From a virus (taxonomy: Duplodnaviria; Heunggongvirae; Uroviricota; Caudoviricetes), in the IMG/VR virus record IMGVR_UViG_3300028591_000112, positions 95,934-131,615 of that record: a DNA stretch of 35,682 nt; one strand, 5' to 3'. The notes below the pieces were generated by a model, which saw nothing but the letters and a program-made list of their open reading frames with translations, searched no databases and was not told where the DNA came from. Positions 773-26,374 of this stretch are shown one piece after another. Each line of letters starts with the position of its first letter. The first letter of the stretch is position 1. Position numbers and translations under genes: made by a program.

Positions 773-1288
773 TTACTCTATGGATAGAGTAATATTATTT
801 TCTTTTAAAATTTTGGCTAATTTTGAAGTATTGCCGCTTTTTTCTGCAACGGCATATGCATCCGCCAGTTCATTTCCAATTTCATTATTATGTCCTGTTA
901 TTTTATATAATCTATAATTTGGAAATTCTTTTATTGCATATTCATATAATGGTTTAATTAAATCTAAATTTTTTATTTCTTGTTTTGAACTATTAATTCA
1001 ATTATTGGCAGCTCAATTATAAATTCATTCATTAAATATATTTACTACATATGAACTATCACTATATATACACACTTCATAATCTTTATATTTAGTTGTA
1101 GCTAATTCAAGAGCTTTTAGAAGTCCTTTTAATTCCATTCTATTATTTGTAGTTTCAGGTTTATCATAATCGTCTTTACCCATATATGCATCTCATATTG
1201 TATTGGCGGCCGCATCATAATTAACGCAACTTCATCCGCCTATTCCAGGATTCCCACTACATGCTCCATCACAAAAAATATTTATCAT
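773..1288 (-). CDS. rnhA: Ribonuclease HI (code 4, 171 aa)
   Basis: MINIFCDGACSGNPGIGG(TGA=W), TTNNRMEL, DSSYV, NE(W)IYN(W)AANN(W), GHNNEIGNELAD; four in-frame TGA at conserved Trp positions. Confidence 0.95.
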
Positions 1289-14818: not shown

Positions 14819-15043
14819 ATGGCACGTTATTCTAGTCTTTTAAAACAAAAGATGCAAATTATTGCTATTGAAATAATCTAGAGCGATTTTTAAAAAGTTT
14901 GAAGTGTAGTCTCAGTGGTAATCAAGTCGTAGAAAATATTTCTACCACAAAAGTAAAACGAAAGTGCAACCCTAGTAATAGGCTGTCTTTTGTGAGGAAA
15001 ACTTACTTGACCTAAGCTACAGAATTACTTTTTAAAATGCCAT
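14819..15043 (+). ncRNA. Putative structured ncRNA (~225 nt)
   Basis: Nested helices atggca/tgccat, tttaaaaagt/actttttaaa, tcaagt/acttga, cacaaaag/cttttgtg, gtagaaa/tttctac. Confidence 0.55.
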
Positions 15044-19167: not shown

Positions 19168-20382
19168 ATGTTAAATATAAAAGGAGGACGCGAACTTGCT
19201 TATGTAGTTAATATAGATAAAATTGAACCAATAGTAGGTTCAGATAATTGTGAATGTGCTATTGTAGGCGGATGGCGTATAATGGTTCGTAAAAATACAT
19301 TCAAAGAAGGAGATAAAGCTGTCTATTTTGAAATTGATTCAAAATTACCTGAAACAGTAGAATGGTCTCAATTTTTAATTAAAAAGCATTATAGAGTAAA
19401 AACTCAAAAATATACTTTTGGTGGTGCGGGAAATTTTATTTCTCAAGGTTTATTAATGTCTTTTGCAGATTTTGGTTGGGATAATGAACAATATCAAGTT
19501 GGAGATTTTTTAACTGAAATATTAGGAATAACTTATGCTATTGCAGACGATAATAAAAGAAAAGCAGAAGTAGATAAATATACTAGAATGAAACAAAGAC
19601 ATTATGAATTATTTAGAAAAAATAAATTAATTCAATGGTTATTTAAAAGAACTTGGGGTAAAAAATTATTATTTATCTTTTTAGGTAAAAAAAGAGATAG
19701 TGCTAGCGGATGGCCAGTTGGAAAATTCCCAGGGGTAGCTAAAACGGATCAAGAGAGATGTGAAAATATGACTTGGGTTTTAGAAGATAAAACTCCATAT
19801 ATAGTAACTCAAAAATGTGATGGTTCATCTGGTACTTTCATATTAGAAAGAAAACATTTAGGTAAATATGAATTTTATGTTTGTAGTAGAAATGTAAGAA
19901 TGTTTAAACCAGAACAAACATGCTTTTATGGAGATAATAATTATTATTGGGATGTTGCTATTAAATATAATATAGAAGAAAAAATGAAAAAATATTTACA
20001 AGAAAATAAAGATATTAATTTTGTTTGCTGGCAAGGAGAAATATGTGGACCTAATATTCAAAATAATCCGCATAAATTACAAGAATTACATTTATTTTGC
20101 TTTCATATGACAGATAGTAAAAATGGTAGATATGATATCCGCGAAGCTAAAAAAATATGGGATAAATATGAAATGGAAACTGTTCCTATTGTAGATACAA
20201 ATTTTATTTTACCTGATGATTTTGAAGAATTTAAAAAACAAGCAGATGGATTATATGATGCTTCTGTTTGTGAAGGTAATGAAAATTGTGTAAGAGAAGG
20301 TTTTGTATATTACAAGACTACAGATCCAACTTTCTCATTTAAAAATGTATCAAGAGAATACTTAATTGGAAAAGGCGAATAG
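19168..20382 (+). CDS. ATP-dependent RNA ligase, DRB0094/Rnl2-like
   Basis: RELAYVV...VYFEIDS N-domain; motif I TQKCDGS, VCSRN, QGEICG, REGFV, SFKNVSREYL. Confidence 0.92.
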   Translation: MLNIKGGRELAYVVNIDKIEPIVGSDNCECAIVGGWRIMVRKNTFKEGDKAVYFEIDSKLPETVEWSQFLIKKHYRVKTQKYTFGGAGNFISQGLLMSFADFGWDNEQYQVGDFLTEILGITYAIADDNKRKAEVDKYTRMKQRHYELFRKNKLIQWLFKRTWGKKLLFIFLGKKRDSASGWPVGKFPGVAKTDQERCENMTWVLEDKTPYIVTQKCDGSSGTFILERKHLGKYEFYVCSRNVRMFKPEQTCFYGDNNYYWDVAIKYNIEEKMKKYLQENKDINFVCWQGEICGPNIQNNPHKLQELHLFCFHMTDSKNGRYDIREAKKIWDKYEMETVPIVDTNFILPDDFEEFKKQADGLYDASVCEGNENCVREGFVYYKTTDPTFSFKNVSREYLIGKGE

Positions 20383-20913: not shown

Positions 20914-20929
20914 AAAGGAGATGATTATT

Positions 20930-22129
20930 ATGACAAATGTAAAAATATTTACAGATAATATAGAGGGCGAAGCATTAAATCAAATATATACTTTAGCTAA
21001 ATTACCTGCATTTGATAATGCAAAAATTCGTATTATGCCAGATGTTCATGCGGGAGCTGGATGTGTGATAGGTTTTACTGCGGATTTAGGTAATAAAGTA
21101 ATTCCTAATATTGTTGGAGTGGATATTGGATGCGGAATGCGCGTTATAAAACTAGGAAATATAGATATAGACTTCGAAAAGCTAGATCGAATCATCCGTG
21201 AGCAGGTTCCCGCAGGTCATGAAGTTCATAATAAAATCTCTTTAGAAATAGATAAAAAATATATAGATAAATTGATATGTAAAAAAGCATTAAGAGATAA
21301 AGACCGTTTAATGGCATCTCTTGGAACTTTAGGTGGCGGAAATCATTTTATAGAAATAGATAAAGATGATGAAGGCTGTAAATATTTAGTAATTCATACA
21401 GGTTCTCGTAATTTAGGAAAACAAGTTGCAGAAATTTATCAAAATCAAGCAATTATGAATTTATCTCCTAAAAAAGATTATTCTAAATTATCTCAAGAAT
21501 TAATTTCTACATATATACAACAAGGAAGACAAACTGAAATACAACTTGCTCTTGCAAAATTACGTTCTGACCTTGATACATTACAACCTAAGATACCTAA
21601 AGAATTAAGTTATCTTGAGGGGGCAGCAAGAGAAAATTATCTATTTGATATGAACATATGCCAAGAATTTGCTGTTGCTAATAGAGAAAAAATTGCAAAT
21701 ATAATTTGTACTGAAATGAATTGGAATAAAATAGAAGAATTTGAGTCTATTCATAACTATATTTCTTTTAAAGATAATATTGTTAGAAAAGGAGCTATTT
21801 CCGCATATAAAGGACAAAAAGTAATTATCCCAATGAATATGCGTGATGGTTGTATAATAGGAATTGGAAAAGGAAACTCAGACTGGAATCAATCTGCTCC
21901 ACATGGAGCTGGAAGAATCATGTCACGAGCTGCCGCAAAATCTTCAATTAAACTACAAGATTATGAAAAATCTATGCAAGGTATATGGACTTCTACTGTA
22001 AATGAATCAACTATAGACGAGTCTGCATTTGCATATAAACCAATGTTAGAAATAATTGATAACATAAAAGATACTGTTGAAATTATAAATATTATTAAAC
22101 CAATATATAATTTCAAAGCAAGTGAATAA
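20930..22129 (+). CDS. rtcB: RtcB RNA ligase
   Basis: MPDVHAG, VGVDIGCG, GTLGGGNHFIE, HTGSR, RKGA, SAPHGAGR, DESAFAYK. Confidence 0.97.
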   Translation: MTNVKIFTDNIEGEALNQIYTLAKLPAFDNAKIRIMPDVHAGAGCVIGFTADLGNKVIPNIVGVDIGCGMRVIKLGNIDIDFEKLDRIIREQVPAGHEVHNKISLEIDKKYIDKLICKKALRDKDRLMASLGTLGGGNHFIEIDKDDEGCKYLVIHTGSRNLGKQVAEIYQNQAIMNLSPKKDYSKLSQELISTYIQQGRQTEIQLALAKLRSDLDTLQPKIPKELSYLEGAARENYLFDMNICQEFAVANREKIANIICTEMNWNKIEEFESIHNYISFKDNIVRKGAISAYKGQKVIIPMNMRDGCIIGIGKGNSDWNQSAPHGAGRIMSRAAAKSSIKLQDYEKSMQGIWTSTVNESTIDESAFAYKPMLEIIDNIKDTVEIINIIKPIYNFKASE

Positions 22130-22909: not shown

Positions 22910-23584
22910 ATGAGATGGTTTGTTACTGGCGATATTCATTCAGACATATGTGAAATATGGCGTTTCATTAAAAAGTTTGATTTAGGTGAAGGCGACAATA
23001 TAATTGTTTGCGGAGATTTTGGTATATTTTGGAACAAAGACCAAAGAGATGCAAGATATTTTATAAATCAATATGAAATAAATTGTAATGGCGTACATTT
23101 ATACTGGATCGACGGTAATCATGAAAACTTTGATATTATAGATAGTTGGCACGCAAAAAATAATAAACCATATGATAATAGTGAACATATTCATTATTGT
23201 CCTAGAGGATTAACAATGAATATCAACAATAAAAAAGCATTATTTATGGGCGGAGCTGATAGTATAGATAAAATAATTCGTAAAGAGGGCATATCATGGT
23301 GGCCGCAAGAACAAATTACAAAACAAGATATACAAAATATTACAGGTCATTATGATTATGTTTTTACTCATTGTTGCCCATATAATTTATTTAATGAAAA
23401 TAGAATTTATTTATGTTTTCATGGCGGAGAGTTAAGAGATATTACTCATATTTCTGAACAAAATTTACAAAAAATGTTTGACAATATTACTTTTGAACAT
23501 CATTATTTTGGACATTATCATGTAGATAAGTCATTAAATGATAAACATATGTGCCTATATAAAACTTTTATTGAATTAAAATAA
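22910..23584 (+). CDS. Calcineurin-like metallophosphoesterase
   Basis: GDIH, GDFG, GNHE, THC, GHYH motifs. Confidence 0.92.
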   Translation: MRWFVTGDIHSDICEIWRFIKKFDLGEGDNIIVCGDFGIFWNKDQRDARYFINQYEINCNGVHLYWIDGNHENFDIIDSWHAKNNKPYDNSEHIHYCPRGLTMNINNKKALFMGGADSIDKIIRKEGISWWPQEQITKQDIQNITGHYDYVFTHCCPYNLFNENRIYLCFHGGELRDITHISEQNLQKMFDNITFEHHYFGHYHVDKSLNDKHMCLYKTFIELK

Positions 23585-23650
23585 TCATATTGATTTTATT
23601 AAAAAATTATTATATAATATATATATAATAAAGGAAAGGAATTGAAAAAT

Positions 23651-23899
23651 ATGAATTATGTTGTTCTAATTGGAAGATTAAAAGAAATTCAAGAAAAACA
23701 TTTAATATTAAATGTTATTGAAAAAGATAAGAATTGAGATGTAAAATGTTATGTAGGAATTGGCTCTATGATGCAAAATGTAAGTCAATATTGTAAAAAG
23801 AATGATTTAGTTGGTATTAAAGGAAAAATTATTGAAAACAATGAAATTTTAATTGAAAAAATAACTTTCTTAAGTTCTAAAACTGAAGAAAATGAATAA
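23651..23899 (+). CDS. Short SSB-like OB-fold protein (code 4, 82 aa)
   Basis: MNYVVLIGRL...N(W)DVKCY...YCKKNDLVGIKGKI...EKITFLSSK; own promoter and RBS. Confidence 0.75.
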
Positions 23900-24074
23900 A
23901 AATTTATTGACAATTTTAAAAATTTTTGATATAATATATATACAATAAATAAAATAAAGGAAACCTTGTTGTGATAGGTGTAAAGGACAAGCAGTAGCCT
24001 GTAGATATGAGTTTGGGGCTACAAGAGAAAAGTTGATTTTTAATAAAATTTATATTATAATATTAATATAAAGA

Positions 24075-24758
24075 AAAAGGTAGGCTCTCCGCCTTAGAAA
24101 CAAAAGGGAAGCTATTTGGTAAAGGATGATGACTCTCCAGCAACCTAAAAAAGCAAATGAGTATTGAGTTTCAAAAATATATAAGAGTTTGCGAAACCCA
24201 CTGAATGAACAGGGTAATGCTTAAACAGAGGTTCTCGAGGGTATTTGCGTAATGCGAGAAACGTTTTCTACTTTTAGTAGATGTAATGCGGATAACGTTG
24301 CAAATCGTTAAAAACTACGGCAAAAAGTTCATTCACCTTTCATAAGACCACCGATTTTCGGTATGCTACTTAATAGTAGCATAGAGTAAATATAGAAAGC
24401 CGAACCGATAAGGTTGTCAAATACCAAGGGTGTTAAATTCAGTTAGTTGTTTTTGAGGTATTTGATAGGGAGCGGGAAAACAACAGGGATTTTTAAATCG
24501 TATTATTAAAGACTAATTAGTTTGATAATACAGTAGTATTTAAAAGCCAATCCTTATGTTTACTCTATGGTGCTATTAAGCACTAATAGCTCGATAAGAA
24601 CTAATATCACTTTCTTGGCGGCAACTGCCTATATTACCTAATTCTTAAACTGCTACTTAGTAGCTGAATTGTAATTAAAAGTTGTATGATTTGTAAATAA
24701 TCAGGGTGCATATAATTTGCAGAATTGAGGATAAAAAGATTATCCTGAGCCTCAATTT
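24075..24758 (+). ncRNA. Putative large structured ncRNA (~600-680 nt)
   Basis: Promoter TTGATT(24033)-17-TATAAT; no ORF; tgaatgaac/gttcattca, catagagtaaata/tgtttactctatg, tcaaatacc/ggtatttga. Confidence 0.6.
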
Positions 24759-24812
24759 ACTTATTGATTTTATTAAAAAATTATTATATAATATATATGT
24801 AATAAAGAAAAG

Positions 24813-24952
24813 ATATATATTTATTATAATATGTTTAAATGATATGGAAGAGTTTTCCACGAGAATTGGAACGAAAGATTGGGGACGCCCTGTGGTGTAA
24901 TATAGTAACACGCTTCCGAAAAACGCTTAAACATATTATAATAAATATATAT
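24813..24952 (+). ncRNA. Permuted tRNA-like domain inside a perfect 26-bp inverted repeat
   Basis: Inverted repeat 24813-24838/24927-24952; ggaag/cttcc stem; T-like arm precedes D-like arm; promoter 24764-24792. Confidence 0.6.
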
Positions 24953-25070
24953 AGGGTGCTAAAAATGCAAGAGGAAAATTTAACATGTTAAATGAGGTAG
25001 CCTAGCCAACCTGAGCTTAGTTCTCAGCTCCGACAAAAATGTACCAGCCCTGTAAATATTTATTATATAA

Positions 25071-25698
25071 TATATTAATGTTCTTTGATAATTAAAATAT
25101 TTTGAACCACTTGACAAACTTGGCTGATTTGCAAAGCTGAGGGTGGACGTCGACTTTATCTTCAAGGTTTGAGGCGGGAGTCTCAGATGGACGGAGATGC
25201 AGCAAAAGGTAACGATTGCCGCAAGATATGTTAATAGCATAAAAAGGAAGATTGATGGTGGGAATTTAATATTTAAATAAGGTACAGAAACCTGTCGTTG
25301 CAATCTTGACAGCCCAGTGGGTGTGTAGAGTAGGAGACCTGATAGCTGTGGTGGCTATAGGGTAAGGAACGTCCTATCAAGACCAATAAGCAATAGAGTG
25401 TGTCGTTGAAAGTAGAAATACTGTATAAGACGGGGAACTGGTGCGAGTAGCGGAAACCGACATATGATTTACAGAGCATTTTGAGAAAATGTCATCTTAC
25501 TAATGACAAAAAGCCTAATGCCCGTGAAAGTAGTGTATATTAACTGCATATAGCCTTGGGAGTTATCTCTGGATAAAGAAGATTGTGGGCTGATCCCCCG
25601 CATGAGGCTCTTTATTCTCTATGGACTGGAGTTTACTTATTAAATGTCTTAATGCGAGGAGCATCAGAATATTTTAGTTATTAAAGAACATTAGTATA
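25071..25698 (+). ncRNA. Putative large ornate ncRNA (~560-nt core) closed by a 35-bp helix
   Basis: 25071-25105 pairs with 25664-25698, all four non-Watson-Crick positions G-U; GC-richer, ORF-free, multi-helix interior. Confidence 0.7.
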
Positions 25699-25722
25699 AT
25701 ATATATTTAAGTATAAAAATAG

Positions 25723-25908
25723 GAGATACTGCGGTGGTGATGTTCTAACTCCTTTATCAAAAGAAACATAAAACCAGCCCCTTAAACTCGGGTGCATAAT
25801 AGAGTTTCTTTTGCTATTTAGGGGTTCTATATACAAGTTCTCCCCATAACAAAAGAATTTGTTGATATACATGCCTTTCTGGTTTGAGAAGTACCGATAT
25901 GTTATCTC
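25723..25908 (+). ncRNA. Putative structured ncRNA (~185 nt)
   Basis: gagata/tatctc, cggt/accg, aaaccag/ctggttt, acaagttct/agaatttgt. Confidence 0.45.
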
Positions 25909-26029
25909 ATATAAAACTTCTCATTGATTTTTAAAATAATTTATTATATAATATATATGTAATAAAGAAAAGATATATTTATTACAAAGTCATTTGGAAA
26001 TAAAAAAAATAGAAGGAGAGTGGATTATT

Positions 26030-26374
26030 ATGGAAAAAATGACAAATGTACAAATGTTTGAGGCATTAAAAGAATATGTGAAAGGAACTGAAAGAGAAGC
26101 TGAATTCGTAGAATTCTTAGACAAGAGAATTGAAATCGCATCTAAAAAAAGAACTGGCGAAACTAAAACTCAAAAGGCAAATAAAGAATTAGCTGATAGA
26201 ATTTTTGACTACATGGTTGAAAATGGAGCTGAATTAACAAGTGCTGATATCATGAGAGAATTCGGTTTAGGAAGTTCACAAAAAGTTGTTGGAGTTATGA
26301 AAGGCTTAATAAATAGCGGAAAAGTAACAAAAGACAAAAATGCTGATAAAAAAGTTGCTTATAAATTAGCCTAA
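26030..26374 (+). CDS. Winged-helix-like small protein (paralog family A)
   Basis: AAGGAG RBS; similar to 2754-3140 (both end AYKLA). Confidence 0.75.
   Translation: MEKMTNVQMFEALKEYVKGTEREAEFVEFLDKRIEIASKKRTGETKTQKANKELADRIFDYMVENGAELTSADIMREFGLGSSQKVVGVMKGLINSGKVTKDKNADKKVAYKLA

Follow-up and report, generated by a model that had tools for sequence, protein, structure and literature searches.

ROOL RNA (Rfam RF03087) was described as a family by Weinberg et al. 2017 (PMC5737381), and one of its members is the L. salivarius lncRNA of Cousin et al. 2017 (PMC5643018). Its occurrence near phage tRNA clusters in the rumen belongs to the founding description of the family (PMC5737381; PMC12990946; bioRxiv 10.1101/2025.04.15.649049; PMC12515178). 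Cryo-EM has revealed that ROOL forms RNA-only cages (Kretsch et al. 2025, PMC12286853), in which, according to the available text of that paper, loop L18 of one chain pairs with L18 of another, a loop too conserved for a covariation test. In the one case in which ends have been mapped, that of L. salivarius, the promoter lies 225-450 nt upstream and both ends fall inside helix P1, as given in the available part of PMC5643018, so in this case ROOL is a processed RNA. Its P1 is short, and the mapped ends look blunt, without a two-base offset. GOLLD (RF02032) and OLE (RF01071) are comparable to ROOL: both are large, ornate RNAs, found in phages or Firmicutes, and both assemble via palindromic kissing loops into multimers made of RNA only, and loop L9.3 of OLE is reported to change among the same palindromes as the ROOL loop (PMC12286853, available text).

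The papers that we could search hold nothing on ROOL biogenesis. The main text of PMC12286853, as available, contains neither ‘RNase’ nor ‘boxA’, the available text of PMC5643018 contains neither ‘RNase’ nor ‘processing’, and no paper in the literature searched joins ROOL with boxA or RNase III, some supplements and the subscription cage papers (Wang, Ling and others) lying outside that scope. Excision by RNase III is, by contrast, described for rRNA: in B. subtilis, the enzyme is reported to cut 67 nt after the 3′ end of 16S rRNA (PMC6144821 and PMC4838370, in part).

Here we analyse a 35,682-nt stretch of DNA (the window) from a complete virus record of 131,615 bases, a 131.6-kb gut/rumen phage. 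We propose, with a probability of roughly 60%, that the window carries a ROOL gene set in an rRNA-style stalk, from which a host RNase III cut likely frees a stable ~590-nt RNA predicted to form an RNA-only cage.

Match of the locus to the ROOL family

On the + strand, 25083-25684 matches the ROOL model over model positions 1-574 with 135.7 bits (E 2.9e-31), above the curated Rfam cut-off of 99.1 bits for RF03087. With 130.4 bits under this model, the experimentally mapped ROOL of L. salivarius is about as strong a match as the window copy. A permissive Rfam search with alignment returned ROOL at 121.9 bits; run with fast filters over the whole window, Rfam missed ROOL at 25083-25684. By its match to the whole model, the interval almost certainly encloses a divergent member of the known family, 602 nt long by the model and non-coding. 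The model of the conserved GOLLD 3′ domain and that of OLE gave no match up to E 10 within 23500-26100 in the permissive search, and GOLLD gave none in the whole genome, in a search without a positive control (the model gave a weak match in one related locus, L107). Neither family thus matches this locus, and the OLE 3′ domain discussed below lies 10 kb away. A sequence-only reading of the window had proposed a ROOL/GOLLD-like or new large RNA here; the first of these names holds, GOLLD and a new family do not, and the strong Rfam match confirms the RNA while removing its novelty as a family.

Pattern and protein searches yielded ten further distinct phage homologs and thus 11 sequences that are 63-94% identical pairwise. 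Most of the 15 + 35 + 20 + 6 pattern loci were chance matches; we kept all full-length profile matches, merged same-contig duplicates to reach 11 and excluded no homolog for absence of the boxA-like word described below. A gapped core pattern had no match among viral contigs, and blastn against cultured phages and plasmids returned short chance matches only. Eight of the 11 phage homologs exceed the Rfam cut-off, whereas L004, L059 and L075 went unreported by cmscan though they align end to end with the other homologs, and were probably lost to its filters. The phage subfamily scores 122-177 bits, against 258-354 bits for 12 ROOLs from bacterial genomes, the latter being the ROOLs among 13 loci sent to Rfam out of 26.

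The locus shares with known ROOLs a length of ~600 nt, the order of helices, a pseudoknot, a variable linker, a phage with a tRNA cluster, a rumen/gut origin and presence in an RNA library. It differs in belonging to a divergent subfamily, in a terminal helix that holds a fixed rRNA-stalk word and runs 12 bp past the Rfam model (which covers ~23 bp of it), and in a loop palindrome, GAUC, that is not the consensus. Moreover, the nearest tRNA is 8.8 kb away, although tRNAs abut several homologs: tRNAs or tmRNA adjoin ROOL in L004, L006, L019, L059, L063, L066 and L067, with tRNAs directly 3′ of it in L004 and L067.

Genome setting and coding potential

The phage apparently reads TGA as tryptophan, as frames of at least 100 aa cover 84% of the genome under table 4 and 69% under table 11. 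In the available text of Borges et al. (bioRxiv 10.1101/2021.08.26.457843), Firmicutes or Bacteroidetes hosts are predicted for TGA-recoded phage clades, and ROOL goes unmentioned there. Public runs that contain the region come from sheep and cattle gut, where an organism is named. The window encodes 26 tRNAs, RtcB, an ATP-dependent RNA ligase and a sigma-70 factor. Following the tRNA cluster on the + strand, the ligase (19168-20382) and RtcB (20921-22129) stand side by side as an RNA-repair pair.

That the interior of the helix holds no credible ORF, as had been claimed from the letters, is borne out under both codes. With table 4, no + strand frame longer than 49 aa overlaps the interior, and on the - strand one 107-aa frame, which has no Pfam match, and one 78-aa frame do. 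Neither table 11 nor table 4 reveals a conserved reading frame there, and 113/130 pairwise indels against the homologs are not multiples of three. Frame lengths, the lack of a Pfam match and the indel pattern together led us to reject a protein-coding reading of the interior.

Other structured elements in the window and in related loci

Several further elements of the + strand deserve mention in their own right. An Rfam match to OLE at 14888-15037 (91.2 bits) covers model positions 438-593 only, and tRNA-Asn and tRNA-Pro on either side leave just 380 nt, not enough to hold a complete OLE. To judge from the part of the model that it covers, this phage sequence may be an OLE-like 3′ domain standing on its own, or else belong to a small related family. 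Upstream of ROOL, 24062-24760 comprises ~700 nt without a gene, has its own promoter, folds better than shuffles (z -3.7) and apparently consists of several small conserved elements in series; parts of the series are also present ahead of ROOL in L018 and L081. One such element without an Rfam match, formed by 24182-24240 with 24315-24335 and separated in the window by an insert of ~70 nt, also occurs in L016, L017, L021, L063 and L081; it shows nested stems, a loop complementary to a downstream word and, by eye, compensating changes, and is a possible pseudoknot. A perfect 26-bp stem around 88 nt follows at 24813-24952, and its right arm has an alternative partner in 25046-25076, with which it would enclose a second small element (24930-25076) directly before the stalk; neither 24813-24952 nor 24930-25076 has homologs among the loci examined.

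Downstream, a second conserved element of ~95 nt without an Rfam match (25720-25815) recurs in L006, L059, L063 and L075, the first three of which have a tRNA or tRNA-like sequence immediately after it, and has relatives in RNA contigs of runs X12 and X18. It could be a processing element or a ribozyme; a home-made descriptor for HDV-like (theta) ribozymes, used without a positive control, found none in the genome and 22 loci. In related ROOL loci, the stretches noted including L004 956-1694 and L006 4278-5100, the tRNAs are joined by tmRNA (L004, L006 and L059), by drum RNA (L092), by weak matches of Y-RNA type (L095) and, in L107, by a GOLLD match below threshold. In L019, a 32-bp stem at 876-1092 (+) encloses 153 nt and lies ~700 nt upstream of the ROOL of that locus.

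A 35-bp terminal helix closes the RNA

The leader arm at 25071-25105, whose inner part is ROOL P1, pairs with the trailer arm at 25664-25698 (+ strand) in an unbroken 35-bp helix of 31 Watson-Crick and 4 G-U pairs that encloses 558 nt, just as the sequence-only reading had described it. With both strands of the 131,615 bases scanned, G-U pairs allowed and a span of at most 1500 nt, it is the longest uninterrupted helix in the genome, and shuffles of 24000-26000 reached a maximum of 21 pairs (300 dinucleotide shuffles) or 22 pairs (300 block-wise shuffles). A 22-bp helix elsewhere, at genome positions 57470-58154 within a TGA-containing coding stretch, was set aside as chance. The leader arm is conserved in the 11 homologs, and variation in the trailer arm is mostly G-U wobble.

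The further claim, that exclusively G-U deviations betray selection on the RNA and give the + strand, needs to be divided. The absence of other deviations is partly built in, as the ends of the helix were placed where other mismatches start. The excess of G-U over A-C in the stem of the 11 homologs (25 cells against 5, and 13 distinct column types against 5) nevertheless supports the RNA-level, + strand reading independently. The enclosed region is folded much more stably by the + strand than by the other: in folding against 20 shuffles, the + strand reaches -187.4 kcal/mol (z -4.3) and the - strand -136.1 kcal/mol (z -3.7).

Conserved inner fold

Covariation in the 11-homolog alignment is strong: 94.1% of cells are paired and 77/161 pairs have changed on both sides, a level matched by 0/500 shuffles, and slid partners give 7-13 both-side pairs. 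These figures refer to a fold taken from the same alignment and the Rfam match, with helix 8 (of 27) out of register, which lowers the score. A pseudoknot at 25400-25463 (+), joining 25400-25405 to 25458-25463, is paired in 100% of cells, with both-side changes in 4/6 pairs. This pseudoknot vindicates one of the four inner helices picked out beforehand (tgtcg/cgaca); the other three fall outside the conserved fold, in which each strand of ctgag/ctcag and caagat/atcttg has other partners, and tgtcat/atgaca falls in the unconserved linker. The linker, at 25464-25511 (+), is unalignable between homologs, and the matching linker is reported to be disordered inside the cage in solved ROOLs (PMC12286853, available text). 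A second long-range pairing is predicted within 25512-25609 (+), between 25512-25516 and 25605-25609. In 11/11 homologs, both words retain their four-letter core; the words are invariant and without covariation within the subfamily, and the Rfam consensus has another complementary pair in this place. Letters at the short putative J6/8-L8 contact, the third such contact expected of a ROOL, are likewise conserved.

A palindromic loop that changes its letters

A hairpin at 25584-25602 (+) presents the palindrome GAUC (25592-25595) in its loop. Its place in the model suggests that it corresponds to ROOL L18, the loop of bridge B6, and we predict that it forms a self-kissing loop between cage halves. 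Among 23 ROOLs, the loop four-mer is AGCU in 9, CGCU in 9, CAUG in 3 (placed by eye), GAUC in 1 and GGCC in 1. A perfect four-base palindrome, of one of four kinds, is therefore found in 14/23, and the central two letters are self-complementary in 23/23. CGCU (9/23) is an imperfect palindrome, and both it and the UGCU of L. salivarius keep only two standard pairs. Because adjacent bases cannot pair within one chain, switching from one palindrome to another supports pairing between chains, and this covariation lends indirect support to cage assembly.

An rRNA-stalk word in the 5′ arm

The leader arm contains a boxA-like, rRNA-stalk word at 25079-25091 (+). Its first ten letters differ from the window in 0/110 cells (11/11 homologs), against 18/110 on the partner strand, where the differences comprise 12 G-U wobbles and 6 mismatches and pairing is retained in 93.6% of cells. 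Deeper in the stem, the two strands vary alike (34/187 and 33/187). Across the 131.6 kb of the genome, 25079 is the only place with this ten-letter word.

We took this word to be the Bacilli rRNA boxA and then tested it against Bacilli rRNA operons. In Priestia megaterium, a longer form of the word has 31 matches, against 0 for the reversed control, mostly as pairs ~1.75 kb apart, and the sites fetched all (11/11) precede 16S or fall within the 16S-23S spacer. In the 17 of 22 operon-sized loci fetched, 15/21 sites pair with sequence ~1.65-1.7 or 2.95-3.2 kb downstream at -28 kcal/mol or lower, forming rRNA stalks of ~28-32 bp that are constructed like the ROOL stem and likewise have wobble in the 3′ arm. 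The short word, in 101 genomes of the class, is about twice as frequent as its reversed control, and an rRNA marker is present in 5/34 loci examined. The word alone is thus not diagnostic of rRNA operons; its longer form in complete operons is.

The likeness to an rRNA precursor stem that the sequence-only reading had remarked upon is accordingly real in both word and layout. Bacilli pre-16S and pre-23S RNase III stalks share with the ROOL stem the ten-letter word on the 5′ arm, an AU-rich stem of 28-35 bp, G-U wobble on the 3′ arm and a promoter shortly upstream. By contrast, the ROOL stem is continuous with ROOL P1, and the phage copies mostly read GAUAA (three GAAAA, one GACAG), where rRNA stalks have GAAAAC. 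What the stem encloses is the 560-nt ROOL, not 16S or 23S, which makes the locus a mimic or the bearer of a borrowed signal rather than an rRNA operon.

Distant ROOLs present a mixed picture. Of the 12 from bacterial genomes, 6, among them two related pairs, show a similar word at their 5′ ends (each with p ≤ 0.012 by shuffling), and in the remaining 6 it is absent or not above chance. Long terminal stems are common among these 12, occurring without the word in L101, L107 and L091, and in the L. salivarius ROOL both the word and a long stalk are absent. How many ROOLs have a stalk is thus estimated from 12 genomes and L. salivarius.

Promoter, ends and RNA contigs

The nearest complete sigma-70-type promoter, TTGATT-17-TATAAT at 24764-24792 (+), is a copy of the phage's repeated promoter and, as a consensus match, gives the predicted start of a precursor; a promoter scan finds no more sites than it does in shuffles. 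A lone TATAAT at 25065-25070 has no -35 box. The promoter ends 21-34 nt before the word in 7/11 homologs and lies 286 nt upstream in the window, and 3 homologs have no promoter in the 400 nt, or the available flank, upstream. Behind the ROOL gene there is no terminator-like site, and the 3′ end therefore needs a nuclease; the phage encodes no RNase III domain. Counted on the P. megaterium trailer from what we take to be the 16S end motif, the 67-nt distance of B. subtilis falls opposite the GAAAA part of the word. Transferred across species, and so possibly a few bases off, this would place RNase III cuts near 25089/25090 and 25681.

One RNA library from sheep gut (run X3) contains an identical contig of 588 nt, with a depth of 176.8, that covers 25089-25676 in + strand coordinates, contigs of this kind showing neither strand nor exact ends, and a contig of a second run of the same sample (X4) covers 25102-25664. 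Both end inside the stem and close to the predicted cut; they represent one sample, and DNA in the library is possible. Related ROOL contigs occur in 4/4 RNA runs examined. One of them (X3) extends ~95 nt upstream of the predicted cut and another (X12) runs 36 letters beyond the last aligned place; such overrunning contigs reflect either precursors or no cut, and count against sharp ends in those relatives. X3 and X4 contain no contig over 25692-25915, and no contig has an end-to-end joint, contig gaps of either kind carrying no evidential weight.

Alternative explanations

If the word acted as boxA only, serving Nus antitermination or helping folding, the long stem would serve as a protective clamp on the ends that is left uncut or trimmed slowly. 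Several observations fit such a role. First, sequence is fixed on one strand only. Second, the word lies as close behind the promoter in 7/11 homologs as in rRNA leaders, and it is one letter from the E. coli boxA consensus, GYTCTTTAANA, given in the available text of PMC5725501. Third, one homolog, L081, keeps the word intact where its outer stem pairs poorly (12/29 aligned pairs Watson-Crick), which fits boxA better than cleavage. Finally, some related RNA contigs overrun the stalk. However, the partner strand still pairs exactly opposite the word, as it does in rRNA stalks, and in the absence of a terminator behind the gene a nuclease is required for the 3′ end. That the identical RNA contig stops inside the stem is a weaker point in the same direction. 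Overall, we regard a boxA-only role as unlikely.

Chance resemblance in AT-rich sequence is another explanation. The helix would then be an ordinary long P1, with ends set by ROOL's own promoter, by RNase P or Z at tRNAs, by ribozymes or by exonucleases. The long P1 helices that lack the word in L101, L107 and L091, its absence from the L. salivarius ROOL and the tRNAs that directly follow L004 and L067 are all compatible with this explanation. It sits poorly, however, with a ten-letter word that is unique in the genome, falls at this very place and is fixed in 11 homologs of 63-94% identity, and with the recurrence of the word at the same place in 6/12 distant ROOLs; we consider coincidence quite improbable.

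RNase III cleavage leaves 5′-phosphate and 3′-OH ends, which in this stem would be adjacent, and the phage's two RNA ligases (RtcB and the ATP-dependent ligase), encoded 3-6 kb upstream, could conceivably join them into a circular ROOL. We give circularization very little credence, as repair of the 26 tRNAs explains the ligases and as circular RACE of the L. salivarius ROOL required a ligation step and the ends mapped are those of a linear RNA (PMC5643018, available text). Hardly any weight attaches to a DNA-level inverted repeat that would relocate the ROOL gene, either as the termini of a mobile cassette or as a recombination site: ROOL neighbours do vary among related phages, but on the + strand G-U exceeds A-C by 25 to 5, the stem and P1 of ROOL form one continuous helix and the arms of the stem are asymmetric in conservation.

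Discussion

Our proposal of a ROOL gene in an rRNA-style stalk builds on four observations: family membership, a conserved fold, a long terminal stem and the likeness of that stem to rRNA stalks. An rRNA-like processing route that uses host RNase III and Nus factors is an analogy drawn from these observations, and we consider it probable. In such a route, host RNA polymerase would start at the phage promoter upstream, which in the window places two other small structured elements ahead of ROOL. While still single-stranded, the 5′ word could act as boxA and recruit Nus factors, which would explain why sequence is fixed on one strand only. Once the 3′ arm has been made, the stalk would close and RNase III would cut near 25089/25090 and 25681, freeing ROOL from neighbouring tRNAs or small RNAs; exonucleases may then trim the ends further. 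By inference from solved relatives, the monomers would join via kissing loops, the palindromic loop among them, into a hexamer or octamer.

ROOL is already known as an RNA family, and our additions, the rRNA-type stalk and the palindrome switching, are both modest. Neither was found in the literature searched. What the cage does is more speculative. Our best guess, doubtful though conceivable, is that it is produced alongside the tRNA and RNA-repair island as a plentiful container or decoy that resists nucleases and sustains translation against RNA-cutting defences of the host. The rRNA-type stalk also hints at a host from the Bacilli.

More broadly, a large part of the ROOL family may borrow the boxA and RNase III stalk of rRNA, with transcription by a Nus complex, folding and excision proceeding as for 16S and 23S, and palindrome switching may reflect cage assembly under natural selection; we place this wider proposal a little short of even odds. 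The rRNA-type stalk would provide a concrete route for ROOL production, through host RNase III and Nus factors, and it indicates where natural ROOL ends should fall, which would be useful for structural work. The loop, with its four palindromes, supplies an evolutionary test of the contact between half-cages that was unobtainable from the alignment of Kretsch et al., and the result bears on whether ROOL cages exist in cells.
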